Assembly: GCF_037042905.1 (NCBI RefSeq)
Contig: NC_087250.1
Location: 7,504,001 to 7,568,000, forward strand
Source of the DNA: Lytechinus pictus
Lineage: Eukaryota
Direction of reading: 5' to 3'
Length of the DNA: 64,000 bases
Numbering within the stretch: position 1 is the stretch's first letter; every line of letters begins with the position of its first letter. Positions 10,347 to 30,188 of the stretch are shown here, piece after piece. The notes under the pieces were generated by a model. The model had not been told where the DNA came from. It did no database searches and saw only the letters and a list, made by a program, of their open reading frames with translations. The position numbers and the translations under genes are program-made.

Positions 10347-10521
10347 TAGTGTTGTACAAATGCACAGGTCCTTAACACGACATATATTTCTAATATGATT
10401 TTTAGATTTATTAACTTCGTTTTCCTGGTCACACATGTGTAAAGCATTATAGCTGAATACCCCCCCCCCCCCTCCCCCCCCCCCACCACCCCCTCTCCTC
10501 TACTGGCCAGTGCAAACTCAC

Positions 10522-10644
10522 CTAAGTTGTTATTCTTGAGAGAAACTTTGACGTGTGAGACGTTTCCATCCTCTTTGATCCCAAGACCTTTGCCCTTTGA
10601 CCAACCCATCTTCTCCATCAACTTCTGACCAAACTTGGAGGAAT
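10522..10644 (-). CDS. PINX1: PINX1 exon 2, G-patch domain (DSSKFGQKLMEKMGWSKGKGLG...KNNNLG)
   Basis: G-patch motif; ttcag acceptor and gtgagt donor; 123 nt. Confidence 0.95.
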
Positions 10645-13557: not shown

Positions 13558-14865
13558 TCTGATGATGTAATTTGTCACGCACGAAAATAACTGTTTTTCG
13601 TGGAGGGGTATGCGGCAAGTGCGATGCAAAGAAAATGGTTGGTAAATATAAAATAATTTTACCATATTCATAATTTTCATAATATTTGGAATAGCAAGTG
13701 CGATTTTTTCTTGATTGTATTTCCTCTAGTGGTCATTTTTAAAGCACTGAAATAAAGGTGTCCGGCAATAGGATACATAGACCAAAAGCTTCGGTCTCTA
13801 TTATGTTGGTTGTTCAGCTGAACTCCGTTGGCTTCACTCACCAAATACAGAGACCGAAGTTCTAGCGCGATCTGTACAGGGGACTCAATGGCCATATGTT
13901 TATGTACTTAAGATCGGATAAAACGGGGAAGTGAATTTGCGCGACAGCCGAGGTAAGTCACTGTTTTTGTTCCTTTTAACTTGATTTTTCTCCGTTTTTT
14001 GGCAATTAATGCCAAGAGGGAATATTAATTTGCATTTTGGTCGCGTTAATTTTCAAAATTTTTTTTCATTAAAGACAAAAATTGAAGAGCCCCGACGGGG
14101 GATTTTGCATTGCAAGTCCCCTAATGGTGGCTGCACGCTAGCGAGCACGTCCCGTTAAAGACAGCACGTTAGCCATTCTCTGATTGGTCAATTAAGGAAG
14201 TCCGATAGTGTGTGTGTTACGTGCAGGCTATGTGGGCTACGTGGCCGTACGCTCGGTATCGTTCGTTTACGACTAATGAGTAATATAGATTCGTGCGAAT
14301 TTATTATTACAGATGATTTATGGGTTAAAATCATAGAGATGTATACTAATCTCTATGGTTAAAACACATGTAGATCTATTTAATGTTGACGATATCGTGA
14401 ACAACGGAGGATCTATGAACCCGCGCGTACGAAGTTAGATGCGAGACCAGTCGTTTTTCGAAAATGGAACAGTGCAATTACCACCATTAGAGTACCAAAT
14501 TCAATTCAAGGGACGCGAGCGCGAGTTCTGCAGCATACCATACGTGGAGTTGAAATTTGAAAACATATCAACAACATCAATTACAATTATTTTTTTACTT
14601 GGTGGAAGATTCAATGCACTAAGAGTTAGAAAAACGAAACATTTTAATTTTAGGGTAGGGTAGATAGGATTATTTAATTTTGTAAAAATATTTTCATCAT
14701 GATAATTTTTAATATACAAGGCAAAAAGTGTTATAGTAGGCCCTAAATATTGTAATAGAATTTCAAATACATTTAATAATTTCATAAAGCCATTGCAAAA
14801 CAAGATTTTATTTTAAGCACATTTAGACATCTACAAAAGTTTGCATAACCTGTTAATAATTTATG

Positions 14866-15510
14866 AATATGTCATGAAAATGGCAACACGGCTGTCTCTA
14901 AATGCTTTATACACTATATGTCAAGAAAATGGCAACACGGCTGTCTCTAATTGTCATATAAACTATATGTCAAGAAAATGGCAACACGGCTGTCTCTAAT
15001 TGTCATATAAACTATATGTCAAGAAAATGGCAACACGGCTGTCTCTAATTGTCATATAAACTATATGTCATGAAAATGGCAACACGGCTGTCTCTAATTG
15101 TCATATAAACTATATGTCATGAAAATGGCAACACGACTGTCTCTAATTGTCATATAAACTATATGTCATGAAAATGGCAACACGGCTGTCTCTAATTGTC
15201 ATATAAACTATATGTCATGAAAATGGCAACACGGCTGTCTCTAAATGCTTTATACACTATATGTCAAGAAAATGGCAACACGGCTGTCTCTAATTGTCAT
15301 ATAAACTATATGTCATGAAAATGGCAACACGGCTGTCTCTAATTGTCATATAAACTATATGTCATGAAAATGGCAACACGGCTGTCTCTAATTGTCATAT
15401 AAACTATAATTATGTCATGAAAATGGCAACACGGCTGTCTCTAATTGTCATATAAACTATATGTCATGAAAATGGCAACGCAGATGTCTCTAATTGCTTT
15501 ATACACTATT
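14866..15510 (+). repeat. 49-bp minisatellite, 13 copies (ACTATATGTCATGAAAATGGCAACACGGCTGTCTCTAATTGTCATATAA)
   Basis: TGGCAAC recurs every 49 bp from 14881 to 15473; inverted partial copies at 16162-16271. Confidence 0.95.
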
Positions 15511-18335
15511 TTTTTAAGTGGACTTGTCCTTTAAGTAGTCAATTGATGGCTTTCAACCAGGATTATCTATTGTTAATTCCTACCCCAAAGCAGGATATAA
15601 AGCTGAATGTACTATAGTCCTTGAAGTGCTAATTGGTTTTCTGCTAAAAGTAATCCCTCTTTTGTTACTAGAAATACTTATTGTAATGACTTTGGGTTTG
15701 CAAAGTATAGAATTACCGTGAAGAGACTGCCTATATAATAATTACAGTTGAAGATACTAATATCTCAAATTCATTATTATAACCGCGTTTCAATTTGCAT
15801 GGCAGTTATAGTCAATATAACATGAAAGGATGCTCCCGGCTGAAGATATATCTAAATAAGTAGAGTAAAATTCACAGCCTAGAGCAAAATGCTGTTTCAT
15901 CAGAATCGGATAACAAATAATGAAGTTATTGAATTTTAAAATTTAGCAATATAGTGATATGCACTTCGTCATAAACATGATAAATAGTCCTATTTATTAT
16001 GTGGGCTGCGGATATGATGTCACATCCCAACTTTTCGTTTTCTTATTACTTGAAATCATAATTGCTTCTATAATTTTTCATCCATGTGTAAATGATGCGT
16101 CTCCATTTGATGAAAATAAGTTCCAGCAATTGATAAATTAATGCACTTAATCAGTTGTCAGCAGTGTTGCCATTTTCATGACATAATTTTAATTCATATA
16201 GTAGAGAGAGCCGTGTTGCCATTTTCATGACATATAGTCTATATGACAATTAGAGACAGCCGTGTTGCCATAACCATACATAGATATAACCATATATTTT
16301 GACATTCTAAAAATGTTTTCATATCATTTACCTATAATATATAATATATTAATGTTATAATATTTTTATAATATTTTTGTGCTAGCTGGGTTTATCTTCT
16401 CCGTGCATTTCGATCTCTCTTTGATATGCGGTACTTTTTATATATAGGTGTGTTATTTATTAGATTCTCATATTTTATCAATTTATCGCGAATTACCATC
16501 AAGGTTTTAGAAGATAGTGTATCTAATATAGATTTTTTCAAAAACTTACCGTCATTGTCATATGAAAGCAAAACAAATTGTGAAGGGAAAGTTTATGAAG
16601 AAGAATGTTTTACAGTCCTTAAAGGAATGAAACAAAATAAATCATCATGGAATGACGGACTGACCGAAGGGTTTTTTACTACATTCTGGACAGAAATAAA
16701 AGATATTTTACTAGGGGCATTTAACAAGGCATTTGAAACAGGAGAACTAACTGCATCACAAAAACAAGCTGTGGTCATTCTGATTGCCAAAGATGGGAAG
16801 GACCCTCATTTACTTAAGAATTACAGGCCAATATCATTATTAAATATTGATTATAAAATTCTATCTAAAGTCTTGGCAACAAGATTAAAAGATGTTTTAG
16901 AAGACATTAGTTCAGTAGATCAAATAGGTTTCATGAACGGGAGAACTATTGGAGAAGCAATCAGAATAATATACGACGTAATATTCCATGCGACAAAAAA
17001 TGACTTACCATAGGGTATATGATAGCAATTGACTTTCAAAAGGCTTTTGATTCGGTGTCCCATGATTTTCTTAATAAAATATTACATTTTTATAACTTCG
17101 GTCCACAGTTTTGCAGATGGGTGGAAATTTTGTACAAAAACTTATTAAGTTGTATTTTTAATGGAGGAATGTCAACGGGATATTTTGATGTACGTAGAGG
17201 CGTAAGGCAGGGGATCCCCTATCCCCATGCCTGTTTATTTTATGTTTAGAAATACTGACACATAATGTAAGATACAATAGGGAGGTTAAAGGTATTTTGT
17301 TTGGAAAGGAGGAAATAAAAAAATCATGTATGCAGATGATATGACCCTTTTTGTTCAAGATGAAGATTCAATTAGAAAAGTCAAAGGTTTATTAGAGAAT
17401 TTGGAAATATTTCAGGATTTGGTGTTAATAAGGATGAAACAAAAGTTCTCTTGATTGGGGCTTTACAAGGAAAATCTTATGAAATACCTTTCGGCCAGAG
17501 AGTGGATTTTGTTAAGATATTAGGGGTGTTTTTTTCTTCGAACAATGAAGTAAAAGAAAATTTGAATTACAAAGAAATATTAAGTAAAACAAAAAAACTT
17601 TTAGGTTGGTGGAAACAGAGGGATTTGACGTTGATGGGTAAAATACAGTTACTAAAGATATTTATATATTCAAAATTCACATACACAGCGGCCCTCATGC
17701 CAGTTCCAAAATGGGTTTATGAGGAGTTAGAAAAGATAACCTTTGAGTTCCTGTGGGGTGGAAGAAATAAAATTAATAGAAATACGATGTATCTGGATTA
17801 CCATTTGGGAGGTCTGAAAATGATGAATTTTGAACTGTTAATAAAAGCACAGAGAGTTATGTGGGTCAAAAAACTTATGGAAAATAACGAAATGAAATGG
17901 AAGTTATATTTTAATCGCGCTACACAACATGTAGGCGGAAGTTTCATTTTTTTCTTGTGACTATTTACTTGACCTTTTGAATTTAACATTGCCAAAGTTC
18001 TATACAGATCTTCTGGAAGTGTGGATAGAAACGAGGAATTTCTAGCAGAAATATGAACCTTACAAAGGAAATGAAATAATGTTTAATAATAAATTCATAC
18101 GAGTTAACGGAAAGTGTATATTTGACAGAAAGCTTTTTGACAAAAAATATATAGATTGAAAAAAAATATATATAGATTGAACCACATAATGGATAGTGAC
18201 GGAAATTTAAGATCTCATGGATACTTAAAACGACGAGGATTAGAATCCAATGACATTGAATTGATTGGCAATAAGATCTATGGTACACTTCCGGTCAGCT
18301 GGAAGAGGAATATGAGAACAGATAGAGACACAATT

Positions 18336-19072
18336 CTCGCTACCCCAAATAGGAACAAAAATCTCATAATGCGCGAGACGAGATAATTTTCACCCCGTCG
18401 GGTCGTCATCACCACTTCCGGTTTAGAGTCATGCCCGCGCGAGGTTCGCGATACTGAGTTTTCCACCACGCTGAAATCGATGCCAATCAGCGTAATATGT
18501 ACAGAGTATAATACTTTTTATTACATTTGGTCAGTTTTGATTCCATTTGAATTATAAATAAAAATAAAAAATATATTTCACGTAAGAATAATTTTTATTC
18601 ATGCTTTTATTTGGTTATAAAAAAATCTAACAAATAATGAATATCTTAAAATTTTGCATTTAGCGACCGGCCTGACATCACGATCGTATTCAACTAGACA
18701 CTAAATATATTCAGCATTCATTTCGTTCAATTTTTCGTCGACCACAAAATGGATAAAAATCAGTTTCGGAACTTAAAAAAAATCTTAACTGACAGATGAA
18801 TACCATGCAATGGAAAGCGTCAGGCAGAATTAGTGACTTTAGCAGAAAAGGCTGTAAAACTGTTAGTGAAAGAGAGGGTTGTGATCACGAACTTTCCGAG
18901 CGAAAGCTACGTTGTGTTGTTGTGCATGACGGCACTGTTGATCTAAATGGCAAATGCAGTGCGTTGGACTTCCGAACAGGAAGTTGTAATACCGAAAAAG
19001 CTATCCCATAATGCAATGCACGTTACAGGGATTTTCCCGGATCTCGGCGAAATCGCTATTTGGGGTAGCGAG
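18336..19072. mobile_element. 737-bp MITE with 17-bp TIR and AATT TSD (possibly Sola1-type)
   Basis: TIR CTCGCTACCCCAAATAG; AATT at 18332-18335 and 19073-19076; interrupts LINE ORF2. Confidence 0.85.
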
Positions 19073-21287
19073 AATTCCTGATGATCCTGACATAGTTTTT
19101 TTATTAGGTAAAAATGTTGTAGCAATAAATGATATTGCATCAAAAAAACTTTATACAACATTTCTTTACCAGAAAGCAATAACACCTGGAGTATTCACAA
19201 GACTAAAGTGTAACTACCGTCTTTCAGATAAAGACACTAGAAAATATTTTTAAAAGACCAAGGCAATGTACATTAAACAGCCGACTTAGAGAGTTCCAAT
19301 TTAAATTCATACACGGAATCATTTATACAAATCAGCATATGCATTTGGGAAAGTTTATTCTAATCTGTGTAGCTACTGTAAAAAAGAAGAAGAGACTTAT
19401 CGTCATTTATTTTTTCAAGTGCGAAAAAGCAAAATTAATATGGAGAGACTGCGAGAATATTTTTGACTTTGTTTCTTTCACCAATCTTACTTGGGAAGAC
19501 ATATTTTGGGGATAAAATTAGCAGATCAAGGAAAAGAAAAATTGGTTATAATCACTTTATAATCCTTGTGAAGTATTTGGTTTTCAGTGGTAGAGAAAAC
19601 AATTCAGAAATAGTTTTGAATAAGATTAAAAATAAATTAAAAGAAAATGAATTTGAAAAAATAAAATTGGCATTAAATAGAAATAAATACCCCCTTCACT
19701 TAAAGTATACATCCAAAGAAAATTCACGAAAGTGATGATTATAGACAAATTATATATGAATGGAAAGGTCTTGTCTTTTTATACACAAATATGTCACTAA
19801 AAAGTCTTATTGATGTCGTGGAAATGCAAGAAATGAAATTATTAGAGACCATTCTAAGCCCCCCAGCCGCCCCCAGACCGACAGTTCACGCAGTGAAAAC
19901 AGTCGAGAATAATGACGTCACACAATCATCGAGCTCATCATCCCTCTGTGCATAATACACTGAATCACCTTACTGACCTCTTCAATATCTTCCGAATTTA
20001 CCGTTTTCTTCATGTAATGTGACATCCGAATTCTGTTTTCGACAACTTCAGACTATAAGGGAACCAGAACTGTGTTATTTTGCCCGTTTTTTATTGAATT
20101 GTGAACTGGAAAGATCGATTTTGTCCACTCGACAGTCTTCGTTGTGTTGCTCTACTAACTATTGAAAAACTCCAAGCTGCACGGTCCCATTCACTTGCTC
20201 CCGATGCATGTTGCAGGCTACGCTGTTTGATCCAGTCAAAAGTCAAGGTAAGCATGTTTGGAAACTGTACTTGTTCTGACGATGCATTCAGGTCAGATGA
20301 CAGATACAGATCTGATATAAGTTTAGAATCATGCATTTTGGCATAACTACTATTAAAATTAAAAAGTTTTTATTTTAGAAATAATGTTTTTGCACAATTC
20401 CACCCAAGGGCACTCTAGGCGACACCCCAATACTTACCCGTGCTAATAAACTGGGACTCCACTCACGCGCATTTGGGCCGCCCTAGCTTAGAACTAAGCA
20501 ATATTATCTAGAAATTGTTACATTGTAGTCATTAAATATGTTCTATTAAATAAATTGATAATGTTTAATCGGTACTCACCGGTTCTTTTGTTGCATTTTC
20601 AGACCATTTCTCACAATTCTTCGTAAATATTTGCGGCAAATTTTGTCGCCATAGACAGCTTAGCATCCATCTTTATTGATAAATGGAGCGCCCTTTACGA
20701 TAGTTGTTAATGCCGCGGAGAAATCGTTAGGCATTTTGGCCTGTGTTCAAGGCGTTCTTTCTGTTTTATTTTTTATATTGAAGATTGTGCATTTGTTGAA
20801 TAGCGCCGTCTACGTCAGGTATGAGATCGAGTGTATAAATACACTCTTCCAAAATAATTATGATTCCGACCTGGCGCTGTTTAACTTCAATCTCTTTCAC
20901 CTAAATTAGCGATGAATGCTAGCATTATAAAATATATATTATTAACGTCTGACGAAAAGAATAACCAACCGATCAGCTGACGAGAACGCGAATCACGTGA
21001 TCTTCATATCAGCTTCGATCGAGAGTCAGAAGAGAAGAGCAGCTGCCCAGAAAATCAGGAAAAAGCCCTGAAAATGTAAGTTCCCCTTCATTTCTTTAAT
21101 TTTTTGTTGTTGCTAACGATGCATTTACACTATAAAATTATAATTTAAATAAGAGAAAGGAATATAGCTTGTACTTGTGATATAATATATAAATATCCTG
21201 TTCTCAGAGATTTCTAACCAAAAATACTACTGATGTCGCCTATGAGGTCCATACATGTAATGTTGGACCTCATTGGTACTAGGAGTG

Positions 21288-21893
21288 CCCAAGGGTTCAT
21301 TACATGCCGCCACGCACAGAAAAATCAAGCCATAGAAGTCGTGTGTTGTGGACCCAAGAAGTGAGATCCCAGACGCCTCCAGGCTAAGCACGCGCGACCC
21401 ACTAGTTAGAAATCCACTGACAAACGCGGTTCGTGGTGCGAGGTTAGTATACTTAATACGTGTGAGTGGCACAATTCCAGCAGATTTTTTCTTCAGATTT
21501 CTAAAACTGGTCAGGACTCAGGCAGGCGATTAAATTATTTAGGAGCACTGAGTGGTATGGACCATGGCTGAAAATCTGCTGTTTCAGAGGAATGTTTAAG
21601 TTTTTATTATACACAGAATTATATCACCATGATGCCGATGTCATGAAGCCAGACAAATTTTCAGCAGTGATTACCCTGATTCCTGGCCAAAATCACTCAC
21701 ACGTATTGCGAGGTTAGTATTAGTATACTACTAGTACGTATTGCGAGGTTAGTATTAGTATACTAACCACGAACCGCGTTTGGCAGTGGATTTCTAACTA
21801 GTGGGTCGCGCGTGCTGGGATCTCACTTCTTGGGTCCACGACTTCTATGGCTTGAATTTTCTGTGCGCGGCGGCATGTTAATGAACCCTTGGG
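21288..21893. repeat. Long inverted repeat element (~180-200-bp arms)
   Basis: CCCAAGGGTTCATTA... pairs with ...TAATGAACCCTTGGG; indels between the arms. Confidence 0.85.
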
Positions 21894-22023
21894 TGGGCCA
21901 AAATTAGAGTCTGGTGTTTCTTTCTGATTAGAGTGTTGCTGCATATATGTATGCGTAATGCCTTCAACAATGAAGATAAATGCAATCTTTGTAATGACAC
22001 AGATAGAGACTCAGAGAGCACCG

Positions 22024-22180
22024 TACCTCAAGTGATGTTCGTGTAGTCTCCACTTCACTACTGGAGTACTGCTACAGCCTACACTACGCTACACACCTAC
22101 CCGGGTAGGTGTGGCGTACATGTACGGTAGTGTAGCGGTAGTGAAGTGGAGTGGGGCCTACACAAACATCACTTGAGGTA
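22024..22180. mobile_element. 157-bp palindromic mini-MITE with 8-bp TSD GAGCACCG
   Basis: TIR TACCTCAAGTGATGTT; central perfect palindrome CACACCTACCCGGGTAGGTGTG. Confidence 0.85.
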
Positions 22181-22769
22181 GAGCACCGGTGTTCTGAGTG
22201 GAACTTTTCAGGTGTCTAAACCTACTATCATTTGTTGTTGACCGGGAATTACATGCCACCGCACGTCATCAATCATCACGATAATTAAATTCATACTTTA
22301 ATTTGATTATTTAAACTATTTCTTTTTTTCTCTCTTCTACACACAGATCTGCACACTTGCTGACTCTGGTGACTTATGGTCTCTGCTTGCTACCTCAATC
22401 TGGGAGATTCCATCATGTCCTTTTACTATGATTTGGGTATAGCCATTTTTTTCTTCACTCTTTCCAGGACCTACGGTTTGCAAGTTGTGGACTGATAATG
22501 ATACAAAAGAAATTTTTTCTTTATCAATCTTGGAAACAACTTTGAGCACAGTTTTGGAGAGAACTAAGAAATTTGACTTGGACAAGAATACAGCTTGTCA
22601 AAAATAATAACACACAATTTAAACGAAAGAACAATTTTAATGTTACTAGGGCATTTTGCGAGAAATGTTATACTCAATCACACGTCCCAAATCAAGGGTA
22701 AGTCCTTTGATTAAACATGTAGTTGAAGTGCGATTGCAACTCGACCTTATTACGCTTGCGGTATTTTAT

Positions 22770-25700
22770 AGATGGCAAATATAGCGATCTTCAACGCTTA
22801 TATATAAGCGTCGAAATTTGTAGCCATCTCCTTGTATTAGTCTATAATATACGACGTGTCAAATTGTAGCGAACTAGTTCGCTATTTCCAGATCTCCTCT
22901 ATATATATATACGAGGGGGAATTGTAGCGAACTAGTTCGCTATTTTCTAGATCTCCTCTATATACAAACGACGAGAAATTGTAGCGAACTAGTTCGCTAT
23001 TTTTCGGAACTCCTCGATATATACACGAGGGGGGATTGTAGCGAACTAGTTCGCTATTTTCCAGATCTCCTCTAGATACATACTACGGGATTTGTAGCGA
23101 ACTAGTTCGCTATTTTTCGGATTTCCTCTATATATATATATACGACGGGAAATTGTAGCGAACTAGTTCGCTATTTTCCAGATCTCCTCTATATATATAT
23201 ACGACGGGAAATTGTAGCGAACTAGTTCGCTATTTTTCGGATCTCTTCTTTTGTAGCGAACTAGTTCGCTATTTTTCGGATCTCCTCTATATACGACGGA
23301 AAATTGTAGCGAACTAGTTCGCTATTTTTCGGATCTCCTCGATATATACACGAGGGGGAATTGTAGCGAACTAGTTCGCTATTTTCCAGATCTCCTCTAG
23401 ATACATACTACGGGATTTGTTCGCTATTTTTCAAATTTCCTCTATATATATACGACGGGAAATTGTAGCGAACTAGTTCGCTATTTCCAGATATCCTCTA
23501 TATATATATACGAGGGGGAATTGTAGCGAACTAGTTCGCTATTTTCTAGATCTCCTCTATATACGACGGAAAATTGTAGCGAACTAGTTCGCTATTTTTC
23601 GGATCTCCTCGATATATACACGAGGGGGAATTGTAGCGAACTAGTTCGCTATTTTCCAGATCTCCTCTAGATACATACTACGGGATTTGTTCGCTATTTT
23701 TCAAATTTCCTCTATATATATACGACGGGAAATTGTAGCGAACTAGTTCGCTATTTCCAGATATCCTCTATATATATATACGAGGGGGAATTGTAGCGAA
23801 CTAGTTCGCTATTTTCTAGATCTCCTCTATATACAAACGACGGGAAATTGTAGCGAACTAGTTCGCTATTTTTCGGATCTCCTCGATATATACACGAGGG
23901 GGAATTGTAGCGAACTAGTTCGCTATTTTCCAGATCTCCTCTAGATACATACTACGGGATTTGTAGCGAACTAGTTCGCTATTTTTCGGATTTCCTCTAT
24001 ATATATATATACGACGGGAAATTGTAGCGAACTAGTTCGCTATTTTCCAGATCTCCTCTATATATATATACGACGGGAAATTGTAGCGAACTAGTTCGCT
24101 ATTTTTCGGATCTCTTCTTTTGTAGCGAACTAGTTCGCTATTTTTCGGATCTCCTCTATATACGACGGAAAATTGTAGCGAACTAGTTCGCTATTTTTCG
24201 GATCTCCTCGATATATACACGAGGGGGAATTGTAGCGAACTAGTTCGCTATTTTCCAGATCTCCTCTAGATACATACTACGGGATTTGTTCGCTATTTTT
24301 CAAATTTCCTCTATATATATACGACGGGAAATTGTAGCGAACTAGTTCGCTATTTCCAGATATCCTCTATATATATATACGAGGGGGAATTGTAGCGAAC
24401 TAGTTCGCTATTTTCTAGATCTCCTCTATATACGACGGAAAATTGTAGCGAACTAGTTCGCTATTTTTCGGATCTCCTCGATATATACACGAGGGGGAAT
24501 TGTAGCGAACTAGTTCGCTATTTTCCAGATCTCCTCTAGATACATACTACGGGATTTGTTCGCTATTTTTCAAATTTCCTCTATATATATACGACGGGAA
24601 ATTGTAGCGAACTAGTTCGCTATTTCCAGATATCCTCTATATATATATACGAGGGGGAATTGTAGCGAACTAGTTCGCTATTTTCTAGATCTCCTCTATA
24701 TACAAACGACGGGAAATTGTAGCGAACTAGTTCGCTATTTTTCGGATCTCCTCGATATATACACGAGGGGGAATTGTAGCGAACTAGTTCGCTATTTTCT
24801 AGATCTCCTCTATATACAAACGACGGGAAATTGTAGCGAACTAGTTCGCTATTTTTCGGATCTCCTCGATATATACACGAGGGGGAATTGTAGCGAACTA
24901 GTTCGCTATTTTCCAGATCTCCTTTAGATACATATACTACGGGATTTGTAGCGAACTAGTTCGCTATTTTTCGGATTTCCTCTATATATATATATACGAC
25001 GGGAAATTGTAGCGAACTAGTTCGCTATTTTCCAGATCTCCTCTATATACGACGGGAAATTGTAGCGAACTAGTTCGCTATTTTTCGGATCTCTTCTTTT
25101 GTAGCGAACTAGTTCGCTATTTTTCGGATCTCCTCTTTATATATACGACGGAAAATTGTAGCGAACTAGTTCGCTATTTTTCGGATCTTCTTTATAAAAT
25201 TTTATACACGAGGAGGAATTGTAGTGAACTAGTTCGCTATTTTTCTAATCTTTATATATACAAGAGACGGAATTGTAGCGAACTAGTTCGCTACAATTCC
25301 CCCTCGTGTATATAATTTTATAGAGGAGATCCGAAAAGTAGCGAACTAGTTCGCTATTTTTCTGATCTTTATATATACAAGAGACGGAATTGTAGCGAAC
25401 GAGTTCGCTACAATTCCCCCTCGTGTATATAATTTTATAGAGGAGATCCGAAAAGTAGCGAACTAGTTCGCTACAAAGCCCGTCGTATGGATATAGAGGA
25501 GATCTGGAAAATAGCGAACTAGTCTGCTACAATTTGACAATATGGCATCAATATATACAGCCAAAACCTGCAGATTTTCACTTTGAAGCCTTCACAATAA
25601 TGTAAGCTTTGGAAAAAATGACAACTAGTTCGCTACAATTTCCCCCTCGTGTATATGAAGAGATCAGAAAAATTGCCATCTAGTTCGCTACAGTTTGCCA

Positions 25701-26352
25701 TGTTTATATTTTAGAGAGGAGATGAGAAATGGCGAACAAGTTTGCAACAATTTCCTGTCGTATACATGTAGAGGAGATCCGAAAAATAGCGAACTACATG
25801 TAGTTTGCTACAATTCCCCCCTGGTGTATATATAGAGGAGATCCAAAAAAATAGCGAACTAGTTCGCTACAATGCCCCCTCATATATAGTTCGCTACAAA
25901 TCCCGTCGTATGTATATAGAGGAGATCTGGAAAAATAAAAAAATAGCGAACTAGTTCGCTACAATTCCCCCTCGTGTACATATCGAGGAGATCCGAAAAA
26001 TAGCGAACTAGTTCGCTACAAATCCCGTAGTATGTATATAGAGGAGATCTGGAAAATAGCGAACTAGTTCGCTACAATTCCCCTCGTGTATATATCGAGG
26101 AGATCCGAAAAATAGCGAACTAGTTCGCTACAATTTCCCGTCGTTTGTATATAGAGGAGATCTGGAAAATAGCGAACTAGTTCGCTACAATTCCCCCTCG
26201 TATATATATATATATATATATAGAGGAGATCTGGAAATAGCGAACTAGTTCGCTACAATTTGACACGTCGTATATTATAGACTAATACAAGGAGATGGCT
26301 ACAAATTTCGACGCTTATATATAAGCGTTGAAGATCGCTATATTTGCCATCT
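22770..26352. mobile_element. Foldback element whose inverted arms consist of ~55-60-bp tandem repeats with the palindromic core TAGCGAACTAGTTCGCTA
   Basis: About 130 bp of identical terminal inverted sequence; forward array ~22861-25270, reverse array ~25400-26260; possible 3-bp TSD TAT. Confidence 0.9.
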
Positions 26353-29300
26353 TATTATTTCCCTTACGCTTGAATTTGAATTTAAGACTTACGCTTGATT
26401 TGCAATTGAACATAAGTTTCTTGCAGTGCCCCATAATTATGTTTTGTTATCAGATATTTAACGTGCTGATTTTTCTCGAAAGGTATAATATATTTGTCCT
26501 TTTAAACGGTATTTGAATATGGGTACGCCTTTTATTTGTTTTCCACAATATTTATTGCATGTATGAACAGAAGTGAAATATTTATTGTGAAGCACTGTGA
26601 ATGTTGTGTGATGGTTCATCATTTTTGTTATAAGACTGAAAGCCTGGTGGATGTGAGGAAGTGGCCTGGATGAAAGAAAAGTGAACATGTGTCCAATTAC
26701 TGATTTGCATATTCTAAGACAATTTTGTTTCTGGATAAATTTTGCTATGCATTCCCTACATTAAGAGTAAAGGAGAAGTCCACGCAATCAAAAATTCATT
26801 TGAATTTAAAGAAAAATAACAAGATATTGCAGGAAATTTCATAAAAACTTTGATTCAAATTTATATAATTACTATTTTAACAGTTCCGTAAATATAACCT
26901 ATTGTGATCAGATGAAGAGTTTCTATCGTCAAATCTGCAAAGAATAAAAAACAAAATGCCACAAAAATAGAAACGAATGTGATGTGAGTGACAACTCTAA
27001 TTTGCATATCATTGTTTTGTGTATATGACTGTTTTGAGTAAAAACAACAAGGGAAATTACTCTATTCAAATAATTTTTAGTTGATGTGGACTTGACTTTT
27101 AACTCTACCCCTCCCATCCCAAATAAGAGTAGAAATAATCTAATCAAGAACTTGAAAATCAAAAGCAGCAATTAAGAAGCAAGATATGATAAATACAGGT
27201 CTGAATAGAATTTCACAAGAAAATAAAAAGAGAAAAAAAAAATGGGTAGGGACAGGGAAGGAATAAAAAAAAAATACCCAGAAAAAAAAAACGAGTTTCG
27301 AACCAGGGTCCTCGCACATGACAAAACAATGGCCAACGCATTTGGCCACAGACCATCTCCCTAACAGGAAGGCATTTTTAAGATATATAAAAGAAAGTCC
27401 GCTCGCCGCTGTTTCCTAATAATGCTTCGGCAATTCAACTGCAATTTCAGTCATTTCGCGATGGATATTGCCGTGTTTTTTTTTGTGGTTCCTGACTTTG
27501 CTACTTAATGAAATTTCATAATTTTTGTTCAGTCATAAAGAAGAATGTCTATGCTTTATATTGACTATAACATTAATGTGACGCAAGTGTGATTTCTACG
27601 TGAAAATATGCTTTGTTTATTCACATATATTTCTTGAAAAAAAAAAAAATTCTAAGCTAAATATCGGTTACCAAAATACGTTAAATGTGCACTTTTTTTC
27701 ACTGTTCAGTAAATTCAAACTTTTATCTATATAACAAGACCAATCTTAAGAGGAATAAACAATTCTAAGAGCAAAAAACGCTGATTGGAAAGATCGTCTC
27801 CAATGGGCTGCTGTCAGCTCAGCTGCACACTGCTCATTGTGTGACGTCACTCAGCTGGAGCTCGCAAGAGGACCGGTGGAAGGCAGAAATATGGCATGAA
27901 AATAAATCATTTTTGAGAGCTGATTTCTGCAATCTCTGATCACTATTTTGAAAAGTGAAGTTATATATCTGATTAGTAATACTTCCCCTTTACAATGATG
28001 ACCACATAAAGTCATTATAAAATACTTTTGATTCTTTGGATGTATACTTTAAGAAAATGGGAATGTTGGGAGGAGTTTAGGGAGAGCTAAATGTGCCAAA
28101 AACAAAAACAAAATGAAAATAAATGAATAAAATAAATTAATTAATTAAAAGTATAAAATGAATAAATGATAAATAAGTTAAAAATAAAATAAGAATAAAT
28201 AACGTGTGTATAAATTATATAATAACGATAATGAATAAAGTATTTTTTCAATGAATGCTTAGGCATGAGAGTATTTTTCATTAATATATATATGTACATA
28301 TATATTTTTTTTTTCATTCTTACCATTCAGAGAAGGAAAACGTTTTTTCCGCCCCCACACGAGTAGAACGGGAAGGTTGTGACGACGAAGGGCATGGGAG
28401 GGGGGTTATGGGGAGGGGTAGAGGGTAGGGCCTGAGGCTGATGTTGTTATAGGATATGAAATATATGAGGAATGAGGCCAAGGTGTGGGGAGGGGGGTTA
28501 TGGAAAATCCTTGTTAATGGCTTTAATTCGACTAGGTTGTATTAATGATTGGTTTTGTGTATTTGGAAAATCTGTTACGTTGTGAATATTTTGACACAAG
28601 AAAAAAAATCGAGTACGTTGAGTTTTATTAGGTTTTATTGTAACACTAAAGGAAAAAAGAGAAAATTTAAAGTGTATATGAGTTTACAATGTATTCATAT
28701 ATTAATTTGTAAAGATATATTGTATTTGATGTATGTATTTTATTTTGTATATGACATGTATGAATTGAAGTTGTTGACAAATAAAAACTTCTTAATACAA
28801 AAAAAAAACCACCACTCGAATAAGAAGACTGTCGTTATATTGTAAATATCATCCGCTAACGTAGAACTAGAAAACAAAATCGGTTAGCTCTAGTGCAACG
28901 AGCCACGAGTCTGATAGTGATACACAAAAAATTGTATCTTCGGCGACGTGCATGAAATATGTTTTTATTACGACTGGTACCGAAGTCTATAGTCTGACCA
29001 TTGATTGATTGGTTGAGCGTGAGCGCGCGCGTCACAGTATGGGTCAAAAAGTTGTTTTTCTTCGCTAGATAATCGTCCATTCGTCCTGTTGTCCAATTCA
29101 GAATTCCTTGGAGAATCTTTCATTTGCAGTTGTGTGATATTAAAATTAGGAAACTGAATATGGTGATAGCGAACCTGTGAAGATCGTTTCAATTACCATC
29201 TTGCGAATAACGTCCTTTAGTGTGTATAGTCCGTACGTACATGCACAGGATATACGTCCTTAACCGACCAATCAGAGAATGGCTAACGTGCTGTCTTTAA

Positions 29301-29636
29301 CGGGACGTTAGCGAGCCGTCTGTGTACGAGGAGAAATAAAAAAAATAAAAAAAGTTAAAAAACTCCTCGAAACAGACGGCTGCCAGCTGTCTATAGGATA
29401 CACTGCCATACTGACACTACTGATTACTGTGTCTGTACATGTCCATCTACGATACACACAGAGACACTGCACTCACGCACTGCCACTGGCATCCAATCCT
29501 ACTCCACAACCACACACTACGACTACGTCAGACTCTGACCGCGCTGACATTTACTACTCTTCTTGGGGGCAACAGAACAAGGAGAACATCAGAATACCTG
29601 ATACTCATATTATTCAATGTCATACATGTTTCATAC

Positions 29637-29709
29637 CTTCACTCCAAGCTTTATTTCTCGGGTCAAAAGACAATTTCTGTCGCCGTCGCGGCTCCGCAAG
29701 CATCGCCAT
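29637..29709 (-). CDS. PINX1: PINX1 exon 1 (MAMLAEPRRRQKLSFDPRNKAWSE)
   Basis: Manual translation matches the conserved PinX1 N-terminus (MxMLAExRRxQK..DPxNxAWS). GT donor (gtatga). Phase 1 fits exon 2. Confidence 0.93.
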
Positions 29710-30188
29710 CTTGTCGGTGCACGTGGATCAACTAAAAATATGTAAATAAATCTAGCTTCTTTATCAGACTGTCTGAATAATAGAAAAATAATTATTATTT
29801 GTTTTTTTAATTGTTTTTTATTATAAATGGTATCAAATAAGAACAGATATATTTATCAATCGTAATTATGAAATTCCTTTATACTTTACAAAGAAATATA
29901 CATAAATAAATATTTAGAAAATGACCCTAAATGCCTTGTACCATATTTAAATTTATGAACAACTCGGTTTAAATGTCCGTACCTTCGTCCAATCAGAGCA
30001 GAGTATTTGCGAAAGCGGAGATCTTCATCGGCCAATGAACGACCACTATTCATTGAATACCGGCCCGCTGTTTTTAAATGCACAAAAGATCGTCAGAAAC
30101 AGGCGATCGCAGCTGACTTGATCGACGCATTGAAATTGTCTGCAGTTTTTTGGACAAATTTTGAAATATTTTGGCTTAAAATATTAAG
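29710..30188. promoter_or_regulatory. Bidirectional promoter and 5' UTRs shared by PINX1 and PLK1
   Basis: 479 bp between divergent ATGs. CCAAT boxes at 29989 and 30032, CHR-like TTTAAA at 30073 and TTTGAA at 30160, E-box CACGTG at ~29720, AAGATGGCG (YY1-type) overlapping both start codons. Confidence 0.75.

Follow-up and report, generated by a model that had tools for sequence, protein, structure and literature searches.

A LINE-carrying, foldback-like transposon with nested inserts in a PINX1-like gene of Lytechinus pictus, and an apparent tie of its family to the motif ATGGC

The window described here, that is, the whole stretch of DNA that was analysed, comprises 64,000 nucleotides of the Lytechinus pictus genome (C6:7504001–7568000 in an assembly of 811.7 Mb); positions given without a prefix are counted from its first letter. 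Its central feature is a 15.2-kb block bounded by terminal inverted repeats (TIRs) and a target-site duplication (TSD), located in intron 1 of a PINX1-like gene, about 320 bp downstream of exon 1. The block is confirmed as a real cut-and-paste transposon insertion. It belongs to a small non-autonomous family of foldback-like build, characterised by AC..GT tips, subterminal arrays of a 49-bp unit and TSDs of 8 or 9 bp; the labels L024–L029, C2, C8 and C19 denote other copies of this family. Most full copies share one truncated long interspersed nuclear element (LINE), and the window copy has most likely received further inserts after landing. According to the explanation that accounts best for the data, which is considered likely as a whole, insertion of the family is non-random and appears, judging from the flanks of its copies, to be tied at single-base precision to ATGGC.

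The surroundings of the element comprise its target, a dispersed repeat termed repeat Y, and the first coding exon of the gene:

13775–14146 (left part) and 29309–29393 (right part): repeat Y, split by the element; the insertion target
~29637–29709, minus strand: coding exon 1 of the PINX1-like gene, reading MAMLAEPRRRQKLSFDPRNKAWSE

The next exon of this gene, at 10520–10639, encodes a G-patch domain (Pfam PF01585, E 7.9e-14). The gene is presumed to be PINX1 from its resemblance together with the G-patch, not from an orthology search, and is hence called ‘PINX1-like’; with this wording, the distance of ~320 bp to exon 1 given in a preliminary description of the stretch holds. The start codon of the gene lies within CAAGATGGC, a full match to the extended motif considered below (29705–29712, minus strand), ~390 bp from the insertion site. 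Repeat Y is a young and very abundant repeat of ~455 bp, with an A-rich stretch between inverted arms; at least 2084 candidates exist in the genome and the near-full-length matches listed are mostly 98–99% identical. All three intact copies of repeat Y that were examined have an empty site, ...GCACGC TAGCGAGC CGTCTG..., with TAGCGAGC present once, and the alignments of the left and right flanks of the element to intact copies overlap by exactly 8 bp. The empty site foretold in the preliminary description (CACGC TAGCGAGC CGTCTG) was seen, therefore, in paralogues and not in an allele.

The element itself has the following layout, in which the inner parts of the LINE are interrupted by the nested elements listed further below:

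14139–14146: left copy of the TSD TAGCGAGC, 8 bp, single in empty paralogues of the flanking repeat
14147–14189, plus strand: left TIR, 43 bp perfect, beginning with ACGT and containing GCCAT (a YY1-type core, on the other strand) and a CCAAT box
14147–14866, plus strand: terminal domain of the A arm, ~720 bp, with several subterminal ACGT-containing repeats
14867–15496, plus strand: direct tandem array of 12.8 copies of a 49-bp unit, with GAAAATGGCAAC in every unit
16159–16271, minus strand: inverted stretch of the same 49-bp unit, 2.3 copies, giving a foldback-like layout
16504–28808, plus strand: LINE, 5′-truncated and polyadenylated, with ~3.1 kb of LINE sequence split by nested elements
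28809–29308, plus strand: B arm, 500 bp, with the right TIR (29266–29308) as its end
29309–29316: right copy of the TSD TAGCGAGC

Direct reading of the ends places the body of the element at 14147–29308 (15162 bp). The left end carries the 43-bp TIR ACGTCCCGTTAAAGACAGCACGTTAGCCATTCTCTGATTGGTC and the right end is its reverse complement with no mismatch; past 43 bp, the likeness continues imperfectly, with two mismatches, to ~55 bp. A GATTGG/CCAAT box lies inside each TIR. For a 28-mer taken from the TIR, the window has two occurrences, as against 0 expected from 100 shuffles. The ends given in the preliminary description (43-bp TIRs extending to ~55 bp, CCAAT boxes and an 8-bp TSD) agree with this reading; its span of 14139–29316 also stands and includes both copies of the TSD. 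The nearest relative of the A arm is a partial copy at C16:1024555, with 95% identity across 720 bp.

A search of the 811.7-Mb genome with the 43-bp TIR (up to 3 mismatches) gave 23 occurrences, compared with 0 for a reversed control, and the matches pair up at other loci with different TSDs. Nine full copies were obtained by this search and pairing, and the copy C19 by a search with the arm sequences; the lengths of the ten are 1627, 5077, 6667, 7510, 8146, 8159, 10614, 11698, 14986 and 15162 bp. Several one-ended or partial copies exist besides. The body common to the family consists of an A arm of ~720 bp, the 49-bp array, a short inverted array, ~3.1 kb of LINE and a B arm of ~500 bp; sequence differences between the two ends, immediately inward of the TIR, allow copies to be oriented from A to B. 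The number of 49-bp units varies among copies, from 12.8 in the window up to ~40 elsewhere. The TSD is a perfect 8 bp in five copies, 8 bp with a 7-bp filler in one, 9 bp in three (C2, C8 and C19) and decayed, with 6 of 8 bases matching, in one.

Fourteen of the 20 ends of the full copies are identical to the window TIR; mismatches occur at five ends, two of them of L026 and one each of C2, C8 and C19. The remaining end, also of C19, carries an insertion of 1 bp. The mean substitution distance between copies is 2.3–2.9%. The notion that the TIRs are far better conserved than the interior was rejected, ~6 changes being found in 860 bp as against ~11 expected. L026 (C3:80059873–80061499), a 1.6-kb deletion copy, is the one with the filler: seven extra bases, ATGACGT, which repeat the tip in part, stand between the tip of its B end and the TSD ATCGAACG. 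L027 (C9:4615866–4620942; 5077 bp) combines the same TIRs with unrelated inner DNA that includes a 157-bp tandem array, which represents another, independent type of cargo between these ends. L074 (C15:19884065–19884133) is an old, diverged end of the family, 87% identical over 70 bases, with AAGATGG in its flank, off the offset described below.

The decayed LINE starts at one truncation point (16504) and ends with a poly(A) tail (28799–28808). Both of its junctions with the host element are identical in eight of the ten full copies, at loci with different TSDs; the two copies that lack these junctions are the 1.6-kb deletion derivative and the copy with unrelated inner DNA. Since the same junctions recur in copies at different loci, the LINE entered once and then travelled to at least eight loci. 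The suggestion of a unit that moves laden with cargo, made in the preliminary description, is borne out for the LINE by this shared truncation point and poly(A)/host junction. That description also considered the opposite case, in which all other copies are short (~1.5 kb) and cargo-free; this does not hold, as only one of the nine others is short (1627 bp).

The nature of the LINE is evident from several features. Matches to RVT_1 were found in the window open reading frames (ORFs) at 16372–17010 and 17004–17246. Free copies of the LINE (L040–L042) reach at least 1.4 kb further in the 5′ direction and end at the same poly(A) site, and one of them, L040, encodes Exo_endo_phos (an apurinic/apyrimidinic endonuclease, APE), RVT_1 and zf-RVT. 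An APE and reverse transcriptase ORF in the free copy, a polyadenylated 3′ end and 5′ truncation all characterise it as a LINE. It was 5′-truncated, hence non-functional, at capture. A TSD of the LINE’s own within the host element was looked for, and none was clear. A 250-bp piece at 16985–17234 is ancestral LINE sequence that has been retained in some copies and deleted in others.

Of the 15.2 kb, 9.1 kb is private, being found in no other full copy, and goes back to at least four further insertion events at three nesting levels:

18336–19072: private miniature inverted-repeat transposable element (MITE), 737 bp, with 17-bp TIRs CTCGCTACCCCAAATAG and the TSD AATT at 18332–18335 and 19073–19076
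19704–28048: private Kolobok-type element, 8345 bp, with the TSD TTAA, tips AG..CT and 17-bp TIRs
20393–21293: 901-bp insert within the Kolobok-type element, with no clear TSD
22759–26363: 3605-bp insert with long TIRs, foldback-like or similar to Mutator-like elements (MULEs), within the Kolobok-type element

Three of these four inserts have a TSD of their own (AATT, TTAA and TTACGCTTG). The MITE belongs to a family of at least 457 candidates; 39 other matches listed are 97–99% identical to it. The Kolobok-type family has at least 333 candidates that are 98–100% identical over the first 500 bp, and the element is 3772–3847 bp long in all three other copies compared. TTAA flanks four of four Kolobok-type copies and the tips are AG..CT, in agreement with the Kolobok signature of a TTAA TSD and 5′-RR..YY-3′ tips given in PMC9587614. 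No coding capacity for a Kolobok DDD/E transposase was detected in the window copy by an ORF and Pfam scan; the stretch 19704–28048 is at best a non-autonomous member of Kolobok, an assignment supported on structure. The 3605-bp insert has a 9-bp TSD, TTACGCTTG, at 22750–22758 and 26364–26372, perfect inverted arms of 142 nt and palindromic tandem arrays of ~57 bp. It carries TAAGATGGCAAAT ~12 bases from its right tip and ATAGATGGCAAAT at its left tip; words of the YY1 type may be common in transposon ends of this genome.

Both private stretches of the first nesting level (18336–19072 and 19704–28048) are absent, at clean junctions, from all nine other full copies. The other large copies have private inserts as well: 5.4 kb and 0.9 kb in C19, 3.4 kb and others in C2, 1.6 kb in L029, and a young LINE and ~1 kb in C8. 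No two copies have an insert in common apart from the founding LINE. The young LINE of C8 (L033:603–3521), nested in the old LINE fragment, has an open ORF of 973 aa with Exo_endo_phos and RVT_1 and is possibly a member of an active family.

Because the private inserts of every large copy differ, filling in place is favoured: the MITE and the Kolobok-type element most likely arrived after landing, which is also the simpler reading. The suggestion of a cargo-laden unit in the preliminary description stands, accordingly, for the LINE, and is unlikely for the Kolobok-type element and the rest of the 9.1 kb; Kolobok cargo at the same junctions, for which that description proposed to check the other copies, was sought and was absent from every one of the nine. 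Nor do the intact ends, taken in that description as a sign of recent movement, say much. At a divergence of 2–3%, the 102 bp of TIRs and TSD should contain ~1.3 changes, and the chance of no change is ~0.27; perfect ends are, for this reason, weak evidence of recent movement.

Some findings nevertheless weigh against filling in place. It is derived from non-sharing only, and cut-and-paste transposition can leave no donor; the non-sharing covers the full copies, with partial copies, including that at C16:1024555, outside the comparison; and the nested elements, 97–100% like their relatives, are not clearly younger than the 2–3% spread of the host family. It is conceivable, then, that the whole 15.2-kb composite, with the MITE, the Kolobok-type element and its inner inserts, was built at an earlier site and moved here recently as a unit. 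The family demonstrably moves units of 6.7–8.2 kb that include foreign DNA (the LINE), the TIRs and TSD are perfect, and the want of a second copy is compatible with a mode of transposition that needs no surviving donor. Such a move is, however, unlikely: the four inserts that postdate the LINE occur in none of the nine other full copies, the private inserts of C19, C8, C2 and L029 are different and lie at different places, perfect ends would be met about once in four at the family’s divergence, and both nested families are abundant, as are repeats throughout the neighbourhood.

The choice of the landing site can be considered for the family as a whole. On one flank of seven of the ten full copies, ATGGC is followed by seven bases and then by the TSD (the N7 offset). 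The sites, with the flank comprising motif and spacer, are as follows:

L025: flank caagATGGCaacttac, TSD GATGACCA
C2: flank the same site as in L025, TSD GATGACCAA
C19: flank caagATGGCaacttgc, TSD AAGAAAAAC
L026: flank taagATGGCagcctcc, TSD ATCGAACG
L028: flank caaaATGGCcgccatg, TSD ATATATTG
L029: flank agaaATGGCgactgca, TSD CGGGAAAA
C8: flank ggtgATGGCggtggca, TSD GAGCCTGAC
Window copy, 14127–14138, plus strand: near-motif GTGGC with a 7-nt spacer, directly before the TSD

In L024 and L027, ATGG is displaced from this position by 1 and 4 bases, respectively. The motif is one-sided; the B end faces it in five copies and the A end in two. Where the TSD has 9 bp, the additional base is on the side away from the motif, which indicates that the near cut is fixed. 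Against a background of 0.0022 per site for ATGGC at this offset, either side being counted, P = 3e-17 for seven of ten copies and P = 9e-15 for six of nine. After multiplication by 31744 (all 5-mers at 31 offsets), P = 3e-10; counted by unrelated sequence contexts (five of eight), P = 2.8e-12.

L025 and C2 are inserted at one and the same nucleotide in separate copies of repeat X, a ~1.2-kb repeat with at least 666 candidates. The TSDs there differ in length (8 bp in L025, 9 bp in C2), and the repeat copy that holds L025 is 99.5% identical to an empty copy as compared with 95.7% to that of C2; because of these two facts, L025 and C2 are regarded as separate hits on one site. Four of five repeat-X copies show an 8-bp overlap of the flanks and a single GATGACCA, that is, a paralogous empty site. 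The fifth, also empty (L062, C2:60000662–60001101 onward), lacks four bases (ACGA) beside the GATGACCA target, either as a possible excision footprint or by chance; this copy is 99.5% identical to the host repeat of L025. Repeat X is young and very abundant and carries TGACGTCA and CAAGATGGC. L028 and a one-ended copy at C2:40752351 (L036) lie at corresponding positions in a satellite in which AAAATGGCCGCCAT occurs twice per unit, and may be two hits or a duplication.

Several facts detract from the explanation in which ATGGC sets the insertion point. The rule is drawn from ten copies in one genome; three of the seven exact cases lie in repeat X or X-like sequence, and the satellite in which L028 lies also surrounds L036; in the window copy, the near-motif GTGGC takes the place of ATGGC; ATGGC or ATGGA stands at the N7 offset in none of seven ends of a sister family, Z, so that a general rule of insertion at a family’s own motif is not shown; and no transposase or autonomous partner was found in the searches described below. 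In view of the repeat and satellite cases, the pattern might arise indirectly, without the motif being read by the transposition machinery, either because the family favours promoter-like or repeat DNA in which YY1-type sites happen to be frequent or because the copies are not independent; the preference of Mutator for the 5′ regions of genes, reported in bioRxiv 10.64898/2026.05.18.725947, provides an example of regional preference in a candidate superfamily. A regional preference, however, gives no single-base spacing, and the exact N7 spacing is present in seven copies and in five of eight unrelated contexts; the flanks and TSDs differ between copies, and the two hits in repeat X fall on the same nucleotide of ~1.2 kb with TSDs of different lengths. 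Such an indirect origin is, on balance, quite improbable. An assembly artefact or a rearrangement that happened to make inverted ends, for which no supporting point was found, can practically be dismissed, given nine other elements at unrelated loci with the same ends, each with its own duplication of 8–9 bp, and a single copy of the TSD in intact copies of the flanking repeat.

Insertion tied to ATGGC thus remains the preferred explanation, and the motif has a counterpart in the element. The extended target motif is AAGATGGCnnC; read on the opposite strand, the form (C)AAGATGGC gives the YY1 consensus GCCATCTTG (PMC7481187), and it matches CAAGATGGC. According to PMC4669652, AAgATGGCggcg is bound by YY1. 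Within the 15.2-kb element there are 19 occurrences of ARRATGGC, compared with 11 in the remaining 48.8 kb of the window. Thirteen of the 19 are in the direct 49-bp array (unit core GAAAATGGCAAC), two in the inverted array and one in each TIR; the other two are at 26346, in the right TIR of the MULE-like insert, and at 22442, elsewhere in the Kolobok-type element. The motif of the TIR, GAGAATGGCTAAC, lies 25 bases from the tip and points outward.

The history and mechanism suggested by these data may be outlined as follows. An ancestor of the family would have received one 5′-truncated LINE, and the composite would then have transposed at least eight times with the LINE. The window copy presumably landed in an abundant repeat within intron 1 of the PINX1-like gene. 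The MITE and the Kolobok-type element most likely arrived thereafter; the latter holds two inserts itself, which would make three nesting levels and at least five insertion events overall. At integration, the near cut would fall 7 nt after ATGGC and the other cut 8 or 9 nt further, with either end of the element able to face the motif. One DNA-binding activity may read AAnATGGC in the TIRs and the 49-bp units and also hold the target; candidates are a site-specific domain of the transposase itself and a host YY1-like protein that bridges element and target. The transposase would be supplied from elsewhere. This last step of the interpretation, in which a YY1-type site (CAAGATGGC), also present in both TIRs and in 13–40 subterminal units, guides integration to the exact base and one binding activity joins element and target, is put forward tentatively, with confidence a little short of even. 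In a limited literature search on YY1 and the target preference of DNA transposons, none of the papers listed reported integration directed by YY1 sites.

By structure, Mutator/foldback-like is the best candidate assignment for the family: the TSDs have 8–9 bp and the ends are modular, with direct and inverted 49-bp arrays. The 8-bp TSD had been described in the preliminary description as fitting hAT, P, Merlin or some MULEs, and the last of these is the part of that list which agrees best with the family. hAT elements have an invariant 8-bp TSD, with the consensus nTnnnnAn, and tips YARNG; hAT was rejected on account of 9-bp TSDs in three of ten copies, 8-bp TSDs of which none of six has T2 and A7, and tips ACGTC. 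P elements have a TSD of 7–8 bp and a THAP-containing transposase; the 8-bp TSDs of the family fit, and the three of 9 bp do not. Merlin, described in PMC8101967 with a TSD of 8 or 9 bp and a conserved terminal 5′-GG, fits in TSD length and was rejected on its tips, since AC..GT lacks the terminal GG; no DDE_Tnp_IS1595 was found in the scanned ORFs. No MULE transposase was linked to the family, for which no profile search of the assembly was made.

Foldback-type sea urchin elements termed TU were reportedly described by Liebermann and co-workers (Liebermann et al. 1983); the likeness is one of description and not of sequence comparison. Foldback elements are mostly assigned to Mutator, are known from sea urchin and have TSDs of 8–10 bp (PMC4079207). 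The Drosophila Tetris/FB elements, as characterised in the same source, resemble the present family in having a terminal domain with tandem arrays, no ORF, no autonomous copy and TSDs of 8–10 bp; the foldback arrangement of direct and inverted arrays is found in the sister family Z, and is represented here by a direct array and a short inverted one. Unlike Tetris/FB in that account, the present family has short TIRs proper (43 bp; 75 bp in Z), a LINE fixed in the body and insertion tied to a motif. MuDR is given a TSD of 4–10 bp in PMC10045372. Variable TSDs that include 8–9 bp, the transport of foreign DNA and preferential insertion near the 5′ ends of genes are likenesses to Mutator/MULE elements within what these sources describe; the tips AC..GT are not shared, and the Mu preference is regional, with no fixed spacing from a motif.

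Three other systems offer partial parallels. Tn7, with TnsD at attTn7, and the fission-yeast Tf1, near Sap1 sites, insert at a fixed distance from a protein-bound site; as here, a one-sided recognition sequence sets the position of integration, whereas Tn7 inserts in one orientation and the present family in both (five copies with the B end facing the motif, two with the A end), and Tf1 is a retrotransposon. Dada elements have TSDs of 6–7 bp. They are sequence-specific DNA transposons, presented in PMC3706591 as the first, with such targeting otherwise known only from non-LTR (long terminal repeat) retrotransposons; the targets of Dada in that account are multicopy small RNA genes, unlike the short motif of a protein-binding type, found in many unrelated sequences, that is seen here. 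ProtoRAG is a cut-and-paste element whose TIR and transposase, according to PMC7481187, are both bound by YY1, with a modulating effect on the reaction. A YY1-type site with a GCCAT core inside the TIRs is common to both; lancelet ProtoRAG is, in contrast, of the Transib/RAG type, and the abstract and section 7 of that source tie no YY1 sites to target choice.

The Pfam scan for a transposase covered ORFs of at least 75–80 aa in the window copy, C2, C8, C19 and L024, and five of the 14 ORFs of at least 60 aa in L027, and found none. The only matches in the scanned copies were RVT_1, zf-RVT and Exo_endo_phos, besides weak ones, namely a few sub-threshold matches to ORFs of low complexity within the tandem arrays and a single weak match to TRASH; the five ORFs of L027 gave no Pfam match. 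For L025, L028 and L029, for which ORF lists only were used, the longest ORF has 194 aa. The 973-aa ORF of the C8 copy was rejected as a transposase, as it belongs to the separate young nested LINE. The autonomous partner that the preliminary description proposed to look for was not found by similarity of the ends or by BLAST with the arms. A genome search with a 24-mer of the TIR (up to 3 mismatches) gave 24 matches, of which one was new (C12:12072217), and no other inverted pairs; the terminal 14-mer (up to 1 mismatch) gave 60 matches, against 238 for the control, and no new inverted pairs. BLAST of the genome with the A and B arms returned family members, one old diverged end and family Z only.

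Family Z (L075–L079) was reached through weak matches to the inner TIR. Its TIR, of at least 75 bp and beginning with ACTGCTGGCTAGCG, aligns with the present one across the CCAAT region, and its tips are likewise AC..GT; it comprises 61 ends and ~22 pairs of 0.57–7.5 kb, with an 8-bp TSD in two of two copies. Its 48-bp units, direct on the left and inverted on the right, are homologous to the 49-bp unit, and both unit and TIR read ATGGA where the present family reads ATGGC. As a possible partner it gave a negative result: two copies (5.4 and 4.3 kb) contain no ORF longer than 135 aa, and three ORFs of one of them gave no Pfam match. As a control for target choice, neither ATGGC nor ATGGA was at the N7 offset in the seven ends examined, a small sample; within that sample, the result fits a rule tied to the GCCAT core and argues against a general rule in which each family uses its own motif.

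The nested stack is in itself ordinary. What is unusual is the target rule, since few eukaryotic DNA transposons integrate in a sequence-directed way. With its shared LINE, the family also shows that fragments of a retrotransposon can be spread to new loci by a DNA transposon. YY1-type sites tend to sit close to transcription starts, and the motif rule could explain landing near the 5′ ends of genes, as in the present case, ~320 bp from exon 1 of the PINX1-like gene. If true, the rule would provide a natural example of tethered or guided cut-and-paste integration, at a fixed spacing from a motif of the transcription-factor type.

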